Part shown: positions 5,087 through 54,694 of the stretch, in pieces
How positions within the stretch are numbered: position 1 is the stretch's first letter
Layout: every line of letters starts with the position of its first letter
Virus record (IMG/VR): IMGVR_UViG_3300034157_000063
DNA length: 64,000 bases
Source: a virus
Lineage: Duplodnaviria > Heunggongvirae > Uroviricota > Caudoviricetes
Strand: one strand, 5' to 3'
Notes under the pieces: generated by a model
What the model saw: only the letters and a program-made list of their open reading frames with translations
What the model was told of the DNA's origin: nothing
The model's database searches: none
Position numbers and translations under genes: made by a program

Positions 5087-6763
5087 TTATTTATTTTCAA
5101 CCGTCATCTTTGATAAACATGGATAGGTTTCAATACCTAAGATATTACAGCCTTTCTCAATGACATCCTTCACTGCCGCGATCAAACATAATTTCTTATA
5201 CTCTTCTTCATGTCCCAATATTTTTTCACTTTCGTAATATTTGTGGAATAAAGTACATAAGCTGACTAGTTGAGTGGTTAAATAATGACTTTGATACTCA
5301 GTACTCATTTCATTGATAATCTCTTGAGTTTTCAAAATATTAAAGAATAAAGCATTTTCCTGATTATTTAAAATCAGATCATCAGTGATGGTCAATTTAG
5401 GTTCATTCATATTGTATTTCTTAAACAAAATTGAATCAATCCGCACATAAGCATTTTGAAGATAAGGAGCTGAACCACCAGAAAAGTTTAAGACATGTTT
5501 CCAGTCAAACACATAATCTTGATGCTTGCTTAATTTTAAATCATGAAATTTAAGACCACCTACAATCGTTTTATTCAACAACTCAGTTTGTGTCTCACCT
5601 GAAAGCTTTGTAAAGTGTGGAGACTTTAATAATTCATTTTTACCTTCCATTAACAAATCATCCAAATACAATGATTTTCCTGTTTTTGTTTTGATAGGTT
5701 TGTTATCTTCACCTAAGATGGTACCGAAACCCAAATGGATAAGCTTATTTTTATCGGTTGCATAACCTACTTTTTTAGCAATCATGAAGATTGTTTCAAA
5801 ATGCAGTGACTGCCGTTTATCAACCACATACACTATTTTATCTGGGTTATGTTGTTCTACCCGCCATTTGATAGCCGCTAAATCATAGAGAGCATACAAA
5901 AAGGTGCCATTCGTTTTTTTGATGACCAGCTTGTTATTTTCAAGTTGAACATACACCGAACCATTCTCATCAACACTGGCAATTTGTTTATTGATTAAGT
6001 CCACAACGATTTCATGACAGAACTGAGCAAAGAAGCTTTCACCTTTGGTATCCGCAATGGTCAATTTGAGCTTAAATTCTTTAATTGTAGATTCTAGGTC
6101 AATCAAACTAATATCGACACATTTTTGCCATAATGCTAGCAATTCATCATCAAGTTTATTTTGAAGCTTGTACGCAACATTATCAGATTCAAGTGCAAAT
6201 GAATTATCATCACTTTCTTTGGATAGGTTATAGGCAGTATAGGCGAGCTTATAATACTCAGTGAGCTTTTGATTGTCCAAGTTGTTTGCTAAATCATTCT
6301 TCATAATGTAATTGAGTAGGAAACCAAACTGATTGCCCCAATCACCAACATGATTATATGAAATAACTTCATCACCCATGTTCTGATGGCTCCGAACAAC
6401 AAAGTCGCCAATAAACATAGACCGTATATGACCGATGTGCATTTTTTTTGCAACGTTAACACCACAGTAATCGACCACCACTGTTTCTTTTGGTTTTGTT
6501 TGCACTGTTTGTGCATTCATTAAATTCATTTTGAAAGACAAAAAAGCCTTACCCGTAATTTCAATGTTTTCGTAATGAGTTGTTTTCAATAAATAAGCAA
6601 TCAAGCTGGCTGTGTCAAAGTCGCCTTTTTTATTTAATTGAAAAAGAATAGATGTTTGATAATGAAAATTTTCAAAACTTGAATACGATACATCAACCGT
6701 TAACGTGATGTTTTTTGATGTCAGATAATTTTGGATATCCGATTTAATAATGGACTTGTACAT
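5087..6763 (-). CDS. argS: arginine--tRNA ligase
   Basis: DYCGVNVAKKMHIGHIRS (HIGH), NHVGDWGNQFG, GESF, YVVDKRQxLHF, PYLQNAYVRI. Confidence 0.95.
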   Translation of the reverse strand: MYKSIIKSDIQNYLTSKNITLTVDVSYSSFENFHYQTSILFQLNKKGDFDTASLIAYLLKTTHYENIEITGKAFLSFKMNLMNAQTVQTKPKETVVVDYCGVNVAKKMHIGHIRSMFIGDFVVRSHQNMGDEVISYNHVGDWGNQFGFLLNYIMKNDLANNLDNQKLTEYYKLAYTAYNLSKESDDNSFALESDNVAYKLQNKLDDELLALWQKCVDISLIDLESTIKEFKLKLTIADTKGESFFAQFCHEIVVDLINKQIASVDENGSVYVQLENNKLVIKKTNGTFLYALYDLAAIKWRVEQHNPDKIVYVVDKRQSLHFETIFMIAKKVGYATDKNKLIHLGFGTILGEDNKPIKTKTGKSLYLDDLLMEGKNELLKSPHFTKLSGETQTELLNKTIVGGLKFHDLKLSKHQDYVFDWKHVLNFSGGSAPYLQNAYVRIDSILFKKYNMNEPKLTITDDLILNNQENALFFNILKTQEIINEMSTEYQSHYLTTQLVSLCTLFHKYYESEKILGHEEEYKKLCLIAAVKDVIEKGCNILGIETYPCLSKMTVENK

Positions 6764-6834
6764 ATTGAAGCTCCTTTTAATTATATAAAAAATAGTAATG
6801 GTTAATTTTTGATTTAATTAAAGTCGTCTCAATA
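6763..6834 (-). promoter_or_regulatory. SD-sequestering stem of argS leader (translational attenuator)
   Basis: mRNA UAUUGAG..CUUUAAUUA (6834-6815) complementary to UAAUUAAAAG..UUCAAUA (6783-6763) spanning the argS SD. Confidence 0.65.
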
Positions 6835-6847
6835 GTTTAGTGTTCAT
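6818..6847 (-). CDS. argS leader peptide MNTKLLRRL
   Basis: GGAG RBS 8 nt upstream; tandem AGA-CGA codons; lies between promoter and argS. Confidence 0.8.
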   Translation of the reverse strand: MNTKLLRRL

Positions 6848-6933: not shown

Positions 6934-7998
6934 TTAACTAACTTTCTGTTTTATGCGAGAGGTTGTTTCATTGATAAATTTCTCTTTCATCTCAGCAATA
7001 TTAGAAGGCTTCTTTTCCATCATCGTTTGTATTGATTTTAAGTCTTTCACATCAATATTCAAATCTTGTGCAACTTTGTTCATGTGACGTTCCGCATCAA
7101 GCTCTAAGGCTCTTTCATTTCTTCCAGTTTGAGCAAAGCCTGCTTTTTTAATAGCTTGAATACCAATGTAACCCATTGCTGCTACACTTATTGCAATTCC
7201 GCCTGTTGCAATAACAGCAGAACTTGCAGCAACCAAACCAGCCGCTGCACCAAATGAACCAAGAGCTGCAACTAATCCGCCATATCCCATTTTATTTTCT
7301 GCTTTGATTTGATTGCTTTGATTTTCAAGACCATATAATTTTCTTTTGTACGTGTCAAAGAAGTTTCCAAGGTTTTGACTCAACTCATCAGCCACTGGTG
7401 CTTTAAATAGTTGATTTTTATTTTTACCTTCTGGAAGTTCAGCTCTTTCTACAATGGATTTTACTATTTCGTGAGCTTTCGTCATGTCTCCTTTTTTTAC
7501 AGCATTTGTGAGACTATGCAAATTCATGTGTTCTGAATATGTTTTGTAATCTGTTTGTTTATGAAATTTATCGCTAAATTGTCTTTCGAATTTACTATCT
7601 TCAATTTTCATTCTGTGTTCTTCAAATATCTTACTGGTAATGTCACCTAATTTACTTTCTTGATATTTTGTATACAACTTGCCTATACCTGCATAAGAAA
7701 GTCCAGCCATCATACCAGCTCCACCACCTAACATAGCGACACCTGCAACAGTAAAACCACCAATTGCAGCCGTTGTAGCGATTGCTGGTATTAATGCGAT
7801 ACTGGCTATACCGCCTACAACACCTAATAAACCTATACCCAAACCACCCATTGTACCTAATTTTATGTGGCCTTCTGCATTTTTTACCTTAGTCGTAACT
7901 TCATCTTTTAATCCGACTGTGTGTGAGAAACCATTAACGATATTCATTAATTTTTCTTCTAATTGATCGGCGGTCTTTGCTTTAAATAAGTTCATCAT
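6934..7998 (-). CDS. Gly/Ala-rich hydrophobic-hairpin protein with internal duplication
   Basis: Two related GGL..G..GA hydrophobic blocks; no signal peptide; basic tail. Confidence 0.7.
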   Translation of the reverse strand: MMNLFKAKTADQLEEKLMNIVNGFSHTVGLKDEVTTKVKNAEGHIKLGTMGGLGIGLLGVVGGIASIALIPAIATTAAIGGFTVAGVAMLGGGAGMMAGLSYAGIGKLYTKYQESKLGDITSKIFEEHRMKIEDSKFERQFSDKFHKQTDYKTYSEHMNLHSLTNAVKKGDMTKAHEIVKSIVERAELPEGKNKNQLFKAPVADELSQNLGNFFDTYKRKLYGLENQSNQIKAENKMGYGGLVAALGSFGAAAGLVAASSAVIATGGIAISVAAMGYIGIQAIKKAGFAQTGRNERALELDAERHMNKVAQDLNIDVKDLKSIQTMMEKKPSNIAEMKEKFINETTSRIKQKVS

Positions 7999-8133
7999 AC
8001 ACCTAATTTATTATATTCTTTTTTCAATTATAGCATAGTATTAAAATATACATAGTGTATTGTTCTATATTTATATAATAATGGTTGAACATAAAGATGA
8101 AATTATGCTATAATTTAGCATTCAGGAGGGCTT

Positions 8134-8895
8134 ATGGATTACGAGACTATTGGCGAAATAAAATACTTTTTATCTGATAAGGAAACTCTTATTCGGGATG
8201 GTTTTGATCAAAAAAATGAACTTAAACGTCTTGAAAAATATATCATGAGAAGCAAAAATAGTTTTATGATTGCGGATAGTCAATTAGACTTGTTAATTGC
8301 ATTAGGATTCGTTCGTGTAGATGGATATCAGCCTTCTGAAACATTAACGTCATTCATGGAAAACTTTCAATTGTTATCAAATGCTGATTTTAGTTATGTG
8401 AGAACTCGAAAGAATAAAACAGTTGAATTATTTTTTAAAAATTTTGAAATGCCATCTGATGGGCATGATTTCTATTATGTAAGCATGAAATCTTTTCAAG
8501 ATAATCCTTTAACATTAGGCAACGGAAAACAAAACTTTTTTTATTCCTATGATGAAATTTATAATGCCGAACCTAATTATCTATTCAAATATGTTGATGA
8601 TTTTATAGAAAAGACAAATATGTTACCTTATTATAATTCTTATGCTCGAATTACAAAAACGTATTACCCTAACAATCCAGATAAAGAATTTGAATTCTAC
8701 TTGTCTATGGTCGCTTTTAACAGTCAAAAAACCGCTACTATATTGGATTACACGTTATATGGGAAAACAATTTCATTCTATAATATTAAAAAATTACTTC
8801 CCGATTTAGAATACACTATGGATTCATTAAGTAAACGCAAAACAGTTATTGATGAAGGACATATTGAATTACTTAAAATTATTCGTTATTCATAG
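8134..8895 (+). CDS. hypothetical protein, variant tail
   Basis: AGGAGG RBS, TGCTATAAT; ends IELLKIIRYS. Confidence 0.75.
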   Translation: MDYETIGEIKYFLSDKETLIRDGFDQKNELKRLEKYIMRSKNSFMIADSQLDLLIALGFVRVDGYQPSETLTSFMENFQLLSNADFSYVRTRKNKTVELFFKNFEMPSDGHDFYYVSMKSFQDNPLTLGNGKQNFFYSYDEIYNAEPNYLFKYVDDFIEKTNMLPYYNSYARITKTYYPNNPDKEFEFYLSMVAFNSQKTATILDYTLYGKTISFYNIKKLLPDLEYTMDSLSKRKTVIDEGHIELLKIIRYS

Positions 8896-23505: not shown

Positions 23506-23682
23506 AAGTGCCTCAGAGATGTTTGTTTAATACTTACATCTTATTCCTATTTTATAGAAAGTAAATCAATATTGTTCTTATTTACAATCAATTTACTCTT
23601 TTTTTACTTATGATTTAAGAAAAATGTTGACTTAATCTCTTTGTTTTGTTAGAGTGAAAGTAATTTCAAAAAGGACAAACAC

Positions 23683-23733
23683 ATGAAACATATTAATTTT
23701 TCAAACATTGTTGGTGGTGCCCGTCAAACTTAA
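23683..23733 (+). CDS. GlyRS leader peptide MKHINFSNIVGGARQT
   Basis: AAGGA RBS; tandem GGT-GGT; followed by terminator then GlyRS. Confidence 0.8.
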   Translation: MKHINFSNIVGGARQT

Positions 23734-23774
23734 ATGTTTTGGCGTATACCTGTTTGTCCTTTGACAATGACACG

Positions 23775-23797
23775 AACCGCCTAACGGCGGTTTTTTT
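23775..23797 (+). terminator. attenuator terminator upstream of GlyRS
   Basis: AACCGCC-TAAC-GGCGGTT + T-tract in the 5' leader. Confidence 0.85.
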
Positions 23798-23834
23798 ATG
23801 CTTGAAATTTAACAAACTAACTAGGAGAACTATC

Positions 23835-24590
23835 ATGGAATTTATTTACAACTTTAATGCTTTACCTTTTTTAAACAAACGAGACTTGATGTTGAAAGAC
23901 TATCTGATTAAACGGATGGAATTTGAAATTCAAGAGTTACTTTTTGCTCAAAATAAATCATGGCGATTTGTACAAATAGAAGCACCTTGCTTAATTCCGA
24001 GAGAATTAGTCAATGCCAATTATACAGATGAAGATATCTGGGTGCAGGAACAACATAATCATGACGCTATTGTGCTTAAACCTGAAACCACAGCAAGTTC
24101 CTATTTGTATATGGAACATCTTTTAAAATCTCAGGAATACATGCCACCATTGTGTGTATGGCAGACATCAAAGAGTTTTAGAAGAGAGCAAGATCAAGTA
24201 ACCAAACACTGTAGATACAAAGAATTCTATCAACAAGAATTTCAATGCTTATATACAAAAGACACAAAGAATAATTACCAAGAAAGTATTATAGAACCAT
24301 TGGCCCAAATATTCTTAGATGTTGTTGCTCTACCTGTCAGAATTGTGCTTTCAGATAGATTGCCTGATTATTCTTTGAAAACGATTGATATAGAAGTATT
24401 CAATAATGATAAATGGATGGAAGTGTGTTCAGTGTCATTAAGAAAAGATTTTACTTATCAGCCTATAGTTAAGAACCAACCAAGAGACTGTTTTGTTCTG
24501 GAAATCGCTTTTGGTCTTGAACGTTTAATCTATAATATTAATCAAAGACAAACAGTGTTTAAAGAATTAGTTGTCACAAATGAACTATAA
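23835..24590 (+). CDS. glycine--tRNA ligase (alpha2/GlyRS-1 type), catalytic core only
   Basis: LKPETT, KSFRRE (motif 2), KEFYQQEFQ, YSxKTIDIE, WMEVCS..RKDF, LEIAFGLERL (motif 3); no anticodon-binding domain; AGGAG RBS. Confidence 0.8.
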   Translation: MEFIYNFNALPFLNKRDLMLKDYLIKRMEFEIQELLFAQNKSWRFVQIEAPCLIPRELVNANYTDEDIWVQEQHNHDAIVLKPETTASSYLYMEHLLKSQEYMPPLCVWQTSKSFRREQDQVTKHCRYKEFYQQEFQCLYTKDTKNNYQESIIEPLAQIFLDVVALPVRIVLSDRLPDYSLKTIDIEVFNNDKWMEVCSVSLRKDFTYQPIVKNQPRDCFVLEIAFGLERLIYNINQRQTVFKELVVTNEL

Positions 24591-24591
24591 T

Positions 24592-24622
24592 CATATAGAT
24601 GCTTCGGCATCTATATGTTTTA
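24592..24622 (+). terminator. intrinsic terminator
   Basis: CATATAGATGC-TTCG-GCATCTATATG + T. Confidence 0.85.
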
Positions 24623-29922: not shown

Positions 29923-30756
29923 GTGACCTTTCATATGATAAATAGTGATAATATAAAAAATGAGTTAACAAAAATATTTGAAGATCTTAAATCTTTAAAT
30001 GATATAGATAATGAAATACAGTTAGATTTCGTAGAACCTAAAAGTATTGACATACCAGATATTACTAATCTTTTTAGAGAAGTAGATATATTTCATAGTG
30101 ATTTGTTGTATGAAATTGAATTTAATAAAAATAAAACTTATAATCAAAAAACAATTAATGAAAATTTTGAAAAAATTGAAAAAAGTTTTTTAAATTATCA
30201 ATTGTTAAGAAAAGATATTTCTAATTATGAAGTTCAACTATTAGATAAAAAAACAGATTATCAAGGTTTTTCATCCCATATTGAAAATTTAAACAATGAA
30301 ATAACGAATATTAGACAACAATTAATTGACCATGAAAACGAATGCAATCAAGCACTCTTGGAATTACGTCAGCGTGAAAAAGACTTTCATAGTGATTCTT
30401 TAAATTCTATTGAAGATCTTGAAGAGTTAGATTCAAATAATAGTTCAAATTTAAGTGCAACGGATTTTGATAACCATCCATTACATAAAGTTTACAATGA
30501 CTATTCAAATTTTTCTGACCTGATGGATATAGAAAAAAATAATTTAAAAAACAGTTTAAATTTAAGTGTTAAGGATTTGGAACAAACGAATGATAAATTA
30601 TCAAATTTTTCTAATTCTTTTGTTGAATATAAAAAAGAATTTATTTCAAAAATAAATAGTGTCAAACCAATTTTAACAATAATCGAAAAAGATATTAACG
30701 TTTTTTTGAATTCTTATATTGTTAAAAATAAACCAACAAATAAAAAAACTATTTAA
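29923..30756 (+). CDS. coiled-coil hypothetical protein (very low GC)
   Basis: Long ORF; possible distant relative of 20222/21291; Lys-rich tail. Confidence 0.6.
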   Translation: MTFHMINSDNIKNELTKIFEDLKSLNDIDNEIQLDFVEPKSIDIPDITNLFREVDIFHSDLLYEIEFNKNKTYNQKTINENFEKIEKSFLNYQLLRKDISNYEVQLLDKKTDYQGFSSHIENLNNEITNIRQQLIDHENECNQALLELRQREKDFHSDSLNSIEDLEELDSNNSSNLSATDFDNHPLHKVYNDYSNFSDLMDIEKNNLKNSLNLSVKDLEQTNDKLSNFSNSFVEYKKEFISKINSVKPILTIIEKDINVFLNSYIVKNKPTNKKTI

Positions 30757-37462: not shown

Positions 37463-38836
37463 GTGAATTTAAAAATGCTCAACACCTTAAGTGGACAAAA
37501 AGAAACCTTCAGACCCATTAAATCTGGTGAAGTGAGTATTTATGTCTGTGGTGTTACTTTGTATGATGATATTCATATCGGGCATCTTAAAAGTATTATT
37601 TCATTTGAAGTGATGAGAAATTACTTCTTGGCAAAAGGCCAGCAAGTTACGCTTGTGCGTAATATCACGGATGTTGATGATAAGATTATTATGAAGGCTG
37701 AACAATTAGGCGTTGACCCACTGGATTTGGTGAATAGCTATATTGATAAGTTCCATGCCGTTTTAGAACAAATGCAAATTCCTATGCCGGATGTTGAACC
37801 GCGTGTGACTCAATACCTACCAGAAATTTCAGATTACATCGAAGATCTCATTGAAAATGGTACCGCTTATGTGACTGATGATGGTGTTTACTTCGACACT
37901 CAACAAAATAAACAAGAACGTTATCCGCTCTCGAAAAAGATTGTGCAGGATTTGGATGACAATTCCAGACTGGATGATAAAGCATATAACAAGAAACATA
38001 AGGCAGACTTTGCCTTATGGAAGCTTGATGACAAGTATGGATATCACAGCAATGTGTTTAGTAAGCAGGGCCGTCCCGGTTGGCATATTGAATGTTCTGT
38101 TATGCATCATCATACATTAGGTCAACATTTTGATATTCATGGGGGTGGTCGTGATCTTATTTTCCCACATCATGAAAATGAAATTTTGCAGAGTGTGGCT
38201 CACAATGGTGTCAATCCTGCGAATTACTGGCTGCATAATGGAATGATGACCAGTGATGGTAAAAAGCTCTCAAAATCGCTAGGAAACTCTATCTATGTAA
38301 AAGACATGTTAGACAGCTACTCAGGTGAAGCGTTGAAACTGTTCTTGAACAAAGGGCAATACAACCAATCACAAGAATTTAAAGAAGATGAATTACAAGA
38401 CGCACAAAACCACTGGGATAACTTTGTTCGTGATGTTCCAGAGTATCTGTTTGATAATTTAGATGATAATGTTTATTTTGAACAAGCACTCAATGCTTTG
38501 GATGATGATTTTAATACACCACAAGTCATTATTGTGCTTCATGAAGGCTTGAAGAACTTGCGTAGGTCTAAATCCTTGAATGTAGCCGAAGATGTCTTGA
38601 AAGTATTCAAATTGTTAGCGGTTGTCCCATCGGATGCTACATTAGAAACGGTTTATGAGAAATGGATGACGGAAGCAGCAAAGCCATCTGCAGAGATAGT
38701 AGAGCTTGTTCATAAACGTCAACAGGCTAAATTAGATAAAAACTATACGTTAGCTGATCAGTATCGCCAACAGGTTCAATCACAAGGTTGGCAAATACTT
38801 GATAAAGGTGATACCTTTGAGTTGCGAAAGATTTAA
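37463..38836 (+). CDS. cysS: cysteine--tRNA ligase
   Basis: YVCGVTLYD..HIGH, NITDVDDKII, GRPGWHIECS, DIHGGGxDLIFPHHENE, KLSKS, DDFNT. Confidence 0.97.
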   Translation: MNLKMLNTLSGQKETFRPIKSGEVSIYVCGVTLYDDIHIGHLKSIISFEVMRNYFLAKGQQVTLVRNITDVDDKIIMKAEQLGVDPLDLVNSYIDKFHAVLEQMQIPMPDVEPRVTQYLPEISDYIEDLIENGTAYVTDDGVYFDTQQNKQERYPLSKKIVQDLDDNSRLDDKAYNKKHKADFALWKLDDKYGYHSNVFSKQGRPGWHIECSVMHHHTLGQHFDIHGGGRDLIFPHHENEILQSVAHNGVNPANYWLHNGMMTSDGKKLSKSLGNSIYVKDMLDSYSGEALKLFLNKGQYNQSQEFKEDELQDAQNHWDNFVRDVPEYLFDNLDDNVYFEQALNALDDDFNTPQVIIVLHEGLKNLRRSKSLNVAEDVLKVFKLLAVVPSDATLETVYEKWMTEAAKPSAEIVELVHKRQQAKLDKNYTLADQYRQQVQSQGWQILDKGDTFELRKI

Positions 38837-44384: not shown

Positions 44385-45878
44385 ATGTCTAAAATAATCA
44401 TAGTTCATTCATTATCCGAATCAAAACTCAGAAAAGCCGTTGAACTTGGTGGAATGCCTCTACCCAGCATCGCGGCTATGAAACCTGATAATGAGTTTAC
44501 CCGTTTTGGTAACATCACCTTCATTCTAAAACCAGAATCTGTTAATCCAAAAGATAAGAAAAATCTATTTTTTGATCGTGATATATTTTCTCAGAGAATT
44601 CCAGAACTCTATTACGATATAGACAAGAAAGCTCTTAGCAGTCTTCATAAACAATTAGACACTATGGTCGATAACAATAAAAGTCTTGAACCTTTATTTA
44701 ATTTGTATGATTTGGATTCATTAAAAAGAAAATCATCTGATTATATTGAAGACCGTTTGAAATCAAGTCCTCTTGTTCGTTTGATGTTTATACAAAAAAT
44801 GAATCCTTCTTATGAACTTCCTACTAAGGTTGATAAATTGCAATCTGATCTTTCATCTGATCTTATTTTTCAAGACTATATGAAAAAAAGAATACACACA
44901 CTTCAACATGATGATGACTTCAAGTCAGCCCTACATGCTGTCTTAGAAAGAAGACATGCTTACTACAAAGACACTATTGGTTTGACAATTGCTGATGATA
45001 TTATGGCTGATTATAAGAAAGCTATCTTTAATCAACATGGCGATATTAATAGTTATTCAAGTGATCTTGAAAAAATTGTGAATGATGTTAAGCGTTATTC
45101 TGGTGTCTCTAAAATATTAGATATTGAGAAGGCTAGGGATGAATTAAGCAAGTTTGCTGATAGTCATACTGCTGATTACAGTGAATTCTTTTCTGACCTT
45201 ACGCAAGATATCTTTGTTAAGCCGCATTTGAGAAATGGCACCCGAAAAGTTGAATATAACTTAGATACGATTTCTAAGTATATGTTAAGACAGCAAGTAA
45301 CCGGAGCAGAAGATGTTAATGATACCAGTATTGGTAAAATATCTTCCAGTTACTCCACACAATTTACTTCTTATGATGACATGATTAGCTATGTTGATAA
45401 ATTAGACACAATGGAAGACCGTCACAATCAAACAGATGCTCTTAATAAGAGAATTTTCGATTTGGCTGAAAAAATACAGCCACACTCCCCTTATTCAAGA
45501 TTTTTTGATGTTCAAGAATATTTATCTTTGGCATTAACACGAGTCTCAACTTTAGAACAGTTTTCTACAAAATTATCTAAACAAGGTTTTGATGTTACTG
45601 CTATACCACAAGATGTCATTAATGAAGGTTTTGACATCTGTCATGGGATTAAAAATCTAAGCAGTCATTATTTTGAAGGAAAGCCACAAAAAGTTATCTA
45701 TTTTGATGACTTCCAAGCGGTAGCACTACCAAAGAATACTGCACCAGACATTATCAAAGCTCTTGATGGTAAAGTGAATATCCACTTCTATGAAACACAA
45801 GAAGAAAAGAAAGCAATATTCTCAAAATACTCATTTGATTCAGCACCTAAAAAACTCAATAAGTTAAAAAACTTTTGA
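44385..45878 (+). CDS. polyvalent-protein-type domain protein, possible ADP-ribosyltransferase fold
   Basis: VHSL..LGGMPLPSIA..FGNIT and YFEGKP motifs; Lys-rich tail. Confidence 0.45.
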   Translation: MSKIIIVHSLSESKLRKAVELGGMPLPSIAAMKPDNEFTRFGNITFILKPESVNPKDKKNLFFDRDIFSQRIPELYYDIDKKALSSLHKQLDTMVDNNKSLEPLFNLYDLDSLKRKSSDYIEDRLKSSPLVRLMFIQKMNPSYELPTKVDKLQSDLSSDLIFQDYMKKRIHTLQHDDDFKSALHAVLERRHAYYKDTIGLTIADDIMADYKKAIFNQHGDINSYSSDLEKIVNDVKRYSGVSKILDIEKARDELSKFADSHTADYSEFFSDLTQDIFVKPHLRNGTRKVEYNLDTISKYMLRQQVTGAEDVNDTSIGKISSSYSTQFTSYDDMISYVDKLDTMEDRHNQTDALNKRIFDLAEKIQPHSPYSRFFDVQEYLSLALTRVSTLEQFSTKLSKQGFDVTAIPQDVINEGFDICHGIKNLSSHYFEGKPQKVIYFDDFQAVALPKNTAPDIIKALDGKVNIHFYETQEEKKAIFSKYSFDSAPKKLNKLKNF

Positions 45879-46717: not shown

Positions 46718-46793
46718 GCTTTGGTAGCTCAGCGGTAAGAGCAGCGGTCCCTAAAACCGATGGTCACGGGTTCGAATCCCGTCCTTAGCACCA
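46718..46793 (+). tRNA. atypical tRNA with CUA (amber) anticodon
   Basis: D and T arms intact, loop CCCTAAA, CCA end; two U-U mismatches in acceptor stem; C33. Confidence 0.7.
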
Positions 46794-53245: not shown

Positions 53246-54694
53246 TTATTTATATTTATTAATTAATTCATCTAATTCTTGTTCAGTAAAACTACCTAAC
53301 TTATTTATAACCGATCTGAAACGATAACGTGTCATGTCTGGCCCCAGTAAGCTCATTGCATCAATTACTGAAATAGAATTTAGTGACCCAGTAATAATCA
53401 CAAACACCAATGGCATAATATCTTTCAATTTTAGATTCATTTTAGCGGCTGACGCTTTTAATGTATCCAGTATTTGAACTTCATTCCATTTCTTCAATGC
53501 TTCAATATCCCATAACATGACTTGAATGGCTTCTTTCACTTCTGCCTCTGTTAATTTCTTGTGCGTTAGTAATGAAGTATCATATTTCAAATCACCACTA
53601 TACATGAAGGCCACCAGATCATTAACCTGACTGAAGTTTTCTACACGACTTTGTATCATCGGTATCAATTTATCAAACTTATCTGTGCTGAATGCCCACT
53701 GTGATAGCTTATCTTTAAAGGTGTCTGGCGTGAGTTCTCTTAACCATAGACCATTGAGCCAAGAAAGCTTATTAACGTCGAAAACAGGGCCACCCAGTGA
53801 TACACGCTGTATATCAAAGTTATCTACCATGTCTTGCAAGGTAAACTTTTCTCTTTCATCCGGCATCGACCACCCCATACGACCCAAATAGTTCAATAAA
53901 GCTTCTGGTAGGTAACCCATGTCCTTATAGAATGTAATAGATGTAGGATTTTTACGTTTTGACAATTTACTTCTGTCCATATTACGCAACAGAGGCATAT
54001 GACAATGCTCAGGCATTTCCCAGCCAAAGTACTGATACAGTAAAACAATCTTAGGTGCAGACGGCAACCACTCTTCACCTTTCAGAACATGAGTAATGTC
54101 CATCAAGTGGTCATCCACAACGTTAGCTAAGAAATAAGTTGGTAAACCATCTTGTTTCATGAGCACTTGCATATCGACTTGCTTCCAATCATAGGTGACA
54201 GCACCACGCAACATATCATTTACAGTGCAGATACCTTCTGTTGGAACTTTCATACGGATAACATGAGAAACACCCGCATTTAGCTTACTAGCTACATCTT
54301 CTGAGGTTAATGTAAGGCAATGACCATCATACTTAGGCGATAGTCCAGCCGCTATTTGGTCTTCACGCATTTTATCAAGGCGATGGCTATCACAGAAGCA
54401 TGGGAAGGCATGTCCTTTGTCTACAAGGATTTGAGCATGTTCTTGATAAATGGCTTTACGGTCACTTTGGCGGCAAGGTTCTTCATCCCACGACAGTCCC
54501 AACCATTTCAGTGAATTTAAAATAGACTCTTCGGATTCTTTGGTAGAACGCACTTGATCAGTGTCTTCAATACGAAGAATGAACTCACCACCATGCTTCT
54601 TAGCAAAGCAATAGTTAAACAAGGCAATATAGGCGGTACCCACATGTGGATCGCCCGTGGGGGATGGTGCTACGCGAGTTCTTACTTTTTTCAT
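53246..54694 (-). CDS. gltX: glutamate--tRNA ligase (Pseudomonas-like)
   Basis: [47 protein letters not shown]. Confidence 0.96.

Follow-up and report, generated by a model that had tools for sequence, protein, structure and literature searches.

The window analyzed here, a 64,000-nucleotide stretch of a Caudoviricetes virus record (IMGVR_UViG_3300034157_000063), carries a gene for a minimal glycyl-tRNA synthetase (mini-GlyRS) behind a short leader peptide with two consecutive glycine codons and an intrinsic terminator. It is reasonably probable that this gene supplies a back-up GlyRS that is switched on when Gly-tRNA-Gly runs short and that would itself charge tRNA-Gly.

All elements of the locus lie on the + strand. 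A putative sigma70-type promoter with an extended -10 TG (TTGACT-17-TAGAGT, 23627..23655) comes first, and similar -35 and -10 boxes precede the leader in many homologues. The leader has its ribosome-binding region at 23670..23681 (SD at 23670-23675) and consists of 16 codons (23683..23733), of which codons 11-12 are the control codons GGT GGT (23713-23718). Segment 1 (23716-23729) and segment 2 (23736-23750) form a protector hairpin (1:2, 23716..23750, -10.9 kcal/mol). In the antiterminator (2:3, 23741..23781), GGCG at 23741-23744 pairs with CGCC at 23778-23781 around an enclosed helix at 23751-23772. The terminator (3:4, 23774..23797) has an 8-bp stem (5' arm 23774-23781, loop 23782-23785, 3' arm 23786-23793) followed by U7. 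The synthetase gene has its own SD (AGGAG, 23823..23827) and encodes a GlyRS-A-type catalytic core of 251 aa (23835..24590). A hairpin with a U-rich tail (24592..24617) directly follows the stop codon and probably ends a monocistronic transcript.

The earlier note had proposed a Gly-Gly leader before a strong terminator and the gene, a protector stem over the Gly codons, an alternative stem that takes up the terminator 5' arm and a segment near 23751 complementary to the leader ribosome-binding region, and all of these were recovered. When a ribosome stalls at Gly, the alternative stem is the minimum free energy structure (-10.4) of the RNA that it leaves uncovered. The segment at 23751..23762, which could sequester the leader SD, is the exact 12-nt complement of 23670-23681, and 12-mer inverted repeats at this spacing have only two starting positions in the whole window. 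The leader RNA as a whole folds with z = -3.5, with equally good folds in 0 of 200 shuffles. The sole candidate for an internal promoter between terminator and gene (23809-23836) overlaps the ATG and so cannot transcribe the whole gene. An upstream TTG start at 23739, giving 283 aa, was also discarded: it has no SD, its reading frame crosses the terminator, and the homologues begin at the position matching 23835.

Transcription would start near 23662, and a ribosome would begin to translate the leader. With plentiful Gly-tRNA, the ribosome would reach the stop codon and cover segment 2, and the terminator would form, as modelling and covariation suggest. If no ribosome is present, the 1:2 stem and the anti-SD helix would form, and the terminator with them. 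A ribosome stalled at GGT-GGT, presumably for lack of Gly-tRNA, would instead mask segment 1 and leave segment 2 to capture the terminator 5' arm, and the polymerase would read through. In a model in which the stalled ribosome masks ten bases beyond the A site, the probability of terminator-arm capture in the window is 0.8 at the Gly stall, 0.07 at the stop codon and 0.04 without a ribosome. The terminator wins in the equilibrium fold of the full window transcript (-17.1), so the switching must be co-transcriptional.

The window antiterminator, with a core of 4 bp, is the weakest of its family (shuffle p = 0.07 taken alone), and the case for its reality is therefore made by the homologues, whose loci are designated here by L numbers. 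Antiterminator pairing beats shuffles at p < 0.05 in 13 of 15 loci. The terminator sequence differs between clades and segment 2 changes along with it: GGCGG faces CCGCC in L240, L237 and L239, GGTGG faces CCACC in L238, GCAGCC faces GGCTGC in L073, AGTAGCCT faces AGGCTACT in L074, and further pairs are seen in L092, L103, L050 and L242. Duplexes between a terminator and its own segment 2 average -12.3 kcal/mol, versus -6.7 kcal/mol across mismatched types. Modelled switching is clear in 12 of 15 loci, partial in L242 and absent from L232 and L156 at the codon tested. Together, the leaders, the covarying antiterminators and the modelled switching in homologues support the claim of a transcription attenuator governed by Gly codons.

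It is barely credible that the switch in the window has decayed, leaving a terminator that merely sets a low constitutive level. The weakness of its antiterminator and the close relative L236, which has lost its leader, would fit such decay. Against it, the modelled capture shifts from 0.8 to 0.07, and L072, whose protein is 95% identical, keeps all the elements in spite of an altered leader sequence and has added one Gly codon. Sequestration of the leader SD is not a general rule, as the pairing is significant in only 4 of 16 loci: it is strong in the window and L072 and significant in L237 and L074. In trp leaders, too, the leader ribosome-binding site is sequestered by a distal segment.

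That glycine is what the leader senses is suggested by the leaders of other loci. Upstream ORFs were picked by position and SD only, blind to their Gly content, and yet 16 of the 19 leaders with a U-tract terminator contain GG or GxG; the next most frequent residue reaches 6 of 19. When 12 close leaders were aligned, a single dinucleotide of the coding part proved invariant, the GG at codon positions 1-2, with the third base variable. Among the alphaproteobacterial leaders, the fraction with GG or GxG is 78 of 82. These have G-R-G at their end; a long hairpin comes next, and then a C-rich tract that lacks a U run. Their output differs from that of the terminator type and is possibly Rho-dependent. 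We consider it very unlikely that the leader senses stalling or arrest in general, responding to a nascent FGG/GGR motif, a rare CGA codon or antibiotics and not to Gly-tRNA. In the alphaproteobacterial leaders, G-R-G is retained, CGA-GGT is fixed and a U-tract terminator is missing, and two to three control codons are few compared with trp, his and phe leaders, which would all suit such a sensor. In the terminator-type leaders, however, the residues that flank the Gly pair are freely variable and each of the four Gly codons occurs, and the enzyme is depleted of Gly only.

In L157, L164, L154, L224 and about 80 other alphaproteobacterial loci, the stretch 190-40 nt upstream of the gene holds a conserved leader RNA with CGAGGT, a long hairpin, a TAAAG bulge and a C-rich tract. 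It has no Rfam match and no U-tract terminator, and in Rhizobium, Devosia and Caulobacteraceae it is a candidate for a new family of attenuators. A phage copy in a tRNA array (L001:3905-4003) has an 11-codon RGRG leader with a hairpin (z -4.0) that reaches the SD of the gene, possibly a translational attenuation version. Nine homologous loci, including the near-identical L072, gave no match to Rfam regulatory RNAs such as the T-box or the glycine riboswitch.

The 251-aa enzyme contains a single Gly, at position 227 in motif 3, where 10.7 would be expected from the window proteome (4.26% Gly; P = 2e-4), and Gly is its sole depleted residue. This is as first noticed, and the canonical GlyRS-A glycines of PETAQG, QxGKSFR and ELEGIA are substituted. 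An unrelated ORF of 277 aa in the window (29923-30756, +) likewise has only one Gly, so that a single count is not decisive, but the conservation of the depletion is. The purge also holds across homologues: of the 120 closest, 80 carry no more than one Gly, 22 of them none at all, while 23 have five or more. In Gly-free forms even the motif-3 Gly has become Ser, a replacement seen in 27 of 297 sequences.

The comparison of Gly counts with and without a leader, which the earlier note had called for, came out in its favor: 19 of 20 terminator-gated copies have 0-1 Gly, as opposed to 10 of 83 leaderless copies (median 7), although the copies are not phylogenetically independent. Terminator-type leaders occupy at least three separate places in a quick tree with SH-aLRT support only (the window with a Burkholderiales clade, the L092 clade, and L050). 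The leaderless copy of phage XbC2, sister to gated copies, has 5 Gly. Alphaproteobacterial copies have 4-12 Gly, compared with about 23 expected, despite their Gly leader. Purged, leaderless copies occur in several phage tRNA clusters, and purge and sensor are thus correlated but not obligately linked.

The protein is most closely related to the homodimeric GlyRS-A, which ranked first in all sequence, profile and fold searches, and its monomer was predicted with a pLDDT of 92. Alignment and residue spacing place E84, E135 and E223 at the amino-group triad of MtbGlyRS (E165, E216 and E324), and A225 at its side-chain gate A326 (PMC12208437). R116, E118, F131, Q133, E196 and R230 likewise correspond to the adenylate residues R197, E199, F212, Q214, E284 and R331 (PMC12208437). 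Ten pocket and ATP residues are near-invariant across 297 homologues, although this is partly built in, since the homologue search patterns included residues 83-86, 127-133 and 193-196; R116, E118, Y179, E223 and A225 lie outside the patterns. The amino-group pocket is of the three-Glu type and not the Trp/Gln/Thr type of GlyRS-B alpha, and the profile for the latter (PF02091, glyQ) scored 21.8 bits, short of its cut-off of 27. A two-copy model scored 0.67, with 0.29 for the best control. This mark is attained by 20 of the 30 solved homodimers used for comparison, as against 1 of the 23 monomers, though the score could stem from resemblance to class II dimers of solved structure; between runs at least 95% of contacts agreed, with pLDDT of at least 89.

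The chain stops 21 residues past motif 3. It has neither the insertion domain nor the HGPT anticodon-binding domain, with no PF03129 match, and scores 47 on the NCBIfam GlyRS-A equivalog model, for which the cut-off is 312. By architecture, mini-GlyRS thus fails as a GlyRS-A equivalog, yet its residues suggest that it keeps the chemistry. PHROGs contains no family for it. The product would be a homodimeric class IIa core that makes glycyl-adenylate in an intact GlyRS-A glycine pocket, judging from the structure, and then presumably glycylates tRNA-Gly by acceptor-stem identity alone. G1-C72, C2-G71 and U73 are identity elements for GlyRS, but C35 and C36 are identity elements as well for the canonical GlyRSs tested (PMC9976931), and the absence of an anticodon domain consequently counts against a back-up GlyRS.

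This missing domain is one reason to consider that the attenuator senses Gly-tRNA but the protein is a Gly-activating paralogue with a non-tRNA acceptor or product, such as an EpmA-like enzyme or aa:CP ligase, an enzyme that makes Ap4A or a decoy for a toxin aimed at GlyRS, which we think rather unlikely. EpmA and the aa:CP ligases are catalytic-domain-only aaRS paralogues with other jobs. The same is true of HisZ and YadB (PMC7373986). However, solved aa:CP ligases did not come up in PDB searches, mini-GlyRS has beside it no partner or carrier-protein gene that is conserved across clades, tRNA-Gly neighbors are frequent, and both the induction by Gly-tRNA shortage and the Gly purge suit a maker of Gly-tRNA. 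It is improbable, too, that tRNA-Gly is charged only with a partner encoded elsewhere, either a split anticodon-binding subunit or a host factor. The role of the anticodon as a GlyRS identity element speaks for such a partner, and split synthetases exist, the AlaRS of N. equitans being an example (PMC11392972). However, the gene has a monocistronic layout, its neighbors differ between clades, and it moves alone; no conserved neighbor that could supply an anticodon domain was found across clades. Nor did a search turn up a longer fused form, which is weak evidence.

As a back-up GlyRS, the enzyme would supplement the host glyQS when this is limiting or under attack, for example by toxins or defenses that block Gly-tRNA. 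Since its mRNA needs one Gly codon and not about 11, it could be translated during the very shortage that induces it. Toxins specific for Gly-tRNA exist, and the antitoxin AtaR2, which lacks Gly, is still translated when AtaT2 blocks Gly-tRNA (PMC7470980). Against this role, neither a true lack of glycine nor cleavage of the tRNA would be relieved by more of the enzyme.

Relatives of similar length form 709 clusters and are found in jumbo phages, in large elements like that of the window and in bacterial genomes (Rhizobium, Shinella, Labrys, Devosia, Caulobacter, Phenylobacterium and Paraburkholderia). The earlier note had placed the design on a phage or plasmid, but it is wider than that: the gene also occurs, with a Gly leader, in genomes of Rhizobium, Caulobacter, Phenylobacterium, Devosia and Paraburkholderia. 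All five bacterial hosts tested keep glyQ and glyS, making mini-GlyRS an accessory gene, and it travels by itself between phages, large elements and chromosomes. In the 3-4 kb flanks fetched, tRNA-Gly is the most frequent tRNA, found in 20 of 53 tRNA-bearing loci, with 12 for the next. In L244, on a Devosia plasmid, a convergent toxin/antitoxin pair with a HipA domain comes after mini-GlyRS (7061-8724), an arrangement seen at this locus only. In L041, L187, L216, L060 and L069, the gene is interrupted or truncated under table 11 by a frameshift, intron or stop.

The contig on which the window protein is recorded exceeds 1 Mb, and close relatives are found on contigs of 1.86-2.23 Mb. The window is rich in ORFans, with scattered tRNAs and synthetases, and the contigs of L072, L232 and the window (over 1 to 2.2 Mb) mix these with Kup, GGDEF and chemoreceptor genes. 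We know of no described phage of such size, and the source is called here a putative giant phage-like element. Nothing relevant on megabase elements was found in the literature searched, which was mostly that available without subscription.

Other synthetases in the window invite comparison, and the parallel with argS drawn in the earlier note is real. The ArgRS (5087-6763, -) has 5 Arg in 558 aa, all encoded by CGG (depletion P 6e-4), behind an Arg-Arg leader of 9 codons (~6818-6847, -), with a modest leader-to-SD hairpin (z -1.6). The CysRS (37463-38836, +) has only two Cys, 29 and 211, which are probably zinc ligands, and no Cys leader was seen at its gene. The GluRS (53246-54694), which is 59-60% identical to Pseudomonas and Acinetobacter enzymes, shows neither Glu depletion nor a Glu-codon leader. 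A protein with a PBECR5 (RelE/colicin-like nuclease) domain is encoded at 44385-45878 (+), directly upstream of the tRNA cluster. This cluster includes an amber-reading tRNA(CUA) with A73 (46718-46793), and a CUA tRNA of this kind also lies 470 nt upstream of mini-GlyRS in L240 (35-109). The tRNA in the window was rejected as a substrate of the enzyme, as A73 and U3-A70 are not Gly-like.

In a clade of jumbo phages (L023, L024, L026, L027, L029, L030, L032, L033, L111 and L126), mini-GlyRS lies beside a lone CUA tRNA with G73. These enzymes are mostly 262-278 aa long, with 7-13 Gly and an altered motif-2 loop, and might form a dedicated suppressor pair with the tRNA. Recoding of TAG in this clade found no support, since ORFs are intact under table 11, though TAG is rare as a stop.

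A wider reading, to which we would give slightly less than an even chance, is that the family is a widespread natural GlyRS of about 250 aa that charges tRNA-Gly in vivo without anticodon recognition, was selected for few or no Gly and is gated by several designs of Gly-leader attenuator (terminator, alphaproteobacterial without a U tract, and SD-sequestering). It would then be one part of a set of codon-specific emergency functions for translation across the element (for Gly and Arg, and probably for Cys and Ala) that guards against the loss of particular aminoacyl-tRNAs.

If the leader works as proposed, glycine would join the amino acids sensed by leader-peptide attenuation. The enzyme is a clear example from nature of a synthetase depleted of the very amino acid that it handles, and Gly-free members drop even the motif-3 glycine. 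With a core-only synthetase in culturable carriers (R. leguminosarum, R. tropici, Caulobacter, Paraburkholderia and phage XbC2), one can test directly the proposal of urzyme and operational-code models that recognition of the acceptor stem is enough for a class II enzyme to function in a modern cell. Its presence would also point to an unrecognized attack on translation that is specific for glycine, and a GlyRS blind to the anticodon could serve code engineering.

The closest models for the control are the trpL, hisL and pheM attenuators, which have the same architecture as leuL. That of leuL is a ribosome-mediated transcription attenuator (PMC5314783). The mini-GlyRS locus shares with trpL, hisL, leuL and pheM (pheST) the promoter, the leader with tandem cognate codons and the protector, antiterminator and terminator, and differs in sensing glycine, in having only two to three control codons and in serving an accessory mobile gene. 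With each testable defining feature found in sequence or model, its control appears to work like trpL, leuL and pheM attenuation. No leader-peptide attenuator for glycine was found in Rfam or in the literature searched, mostly papers available without subscription, and the same literature held no description of the mini-GlyRS family or of cognate-purged synthetases. Firmicutes glyS is regulated by a T-box (PMC4574755).

With the GlyRS-A enzymes of T. thermophilus (1ATI), Mycobacterium (8U2Q/8SLF) and N. equitans (5Z5E), mini-GlyRS has in common the class IIa fold, motifs 2 and 3, the Glu triad, the Ala gate and the lid Tyr, and possibly the homodimeric state that the model predicts. It differs in size (251 aa compared with ~460-530), in lacking the insertion domain, beta-hairpin linker and HGPT domain, and in having Gln for the buried Glu218. 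The indolmycin-resistant TrpRS of Streptomyces is also a second synthetase, induced through cognate leader codons when the housekeeping enzyme fails. Mini-GlyRS, however, belongs to another class, is truncated and is purged of its cognate residue.

The closest published instance of the purge logic is AtaR2, a Gly-free rescue protein that can be translated when Gly-tRNA is blocked (PMC7470980), but it is an antitoxin under toxin-antitoxin autoregulation and not a synthetase under attenuation. Stand-alone catalytic cores like that of mini-GlyRS are represented by HisZ, GluQ/YadB, EpmA, the aa:CP ligases and the urzymes derived from GlyRS-B (PMC11602164). Mini-GlyRS differs from all of these in that it comes from GlyRS-A and forms a widespread natural family associated with genes for tRNA-Gly and with a sensor of Gly codons.
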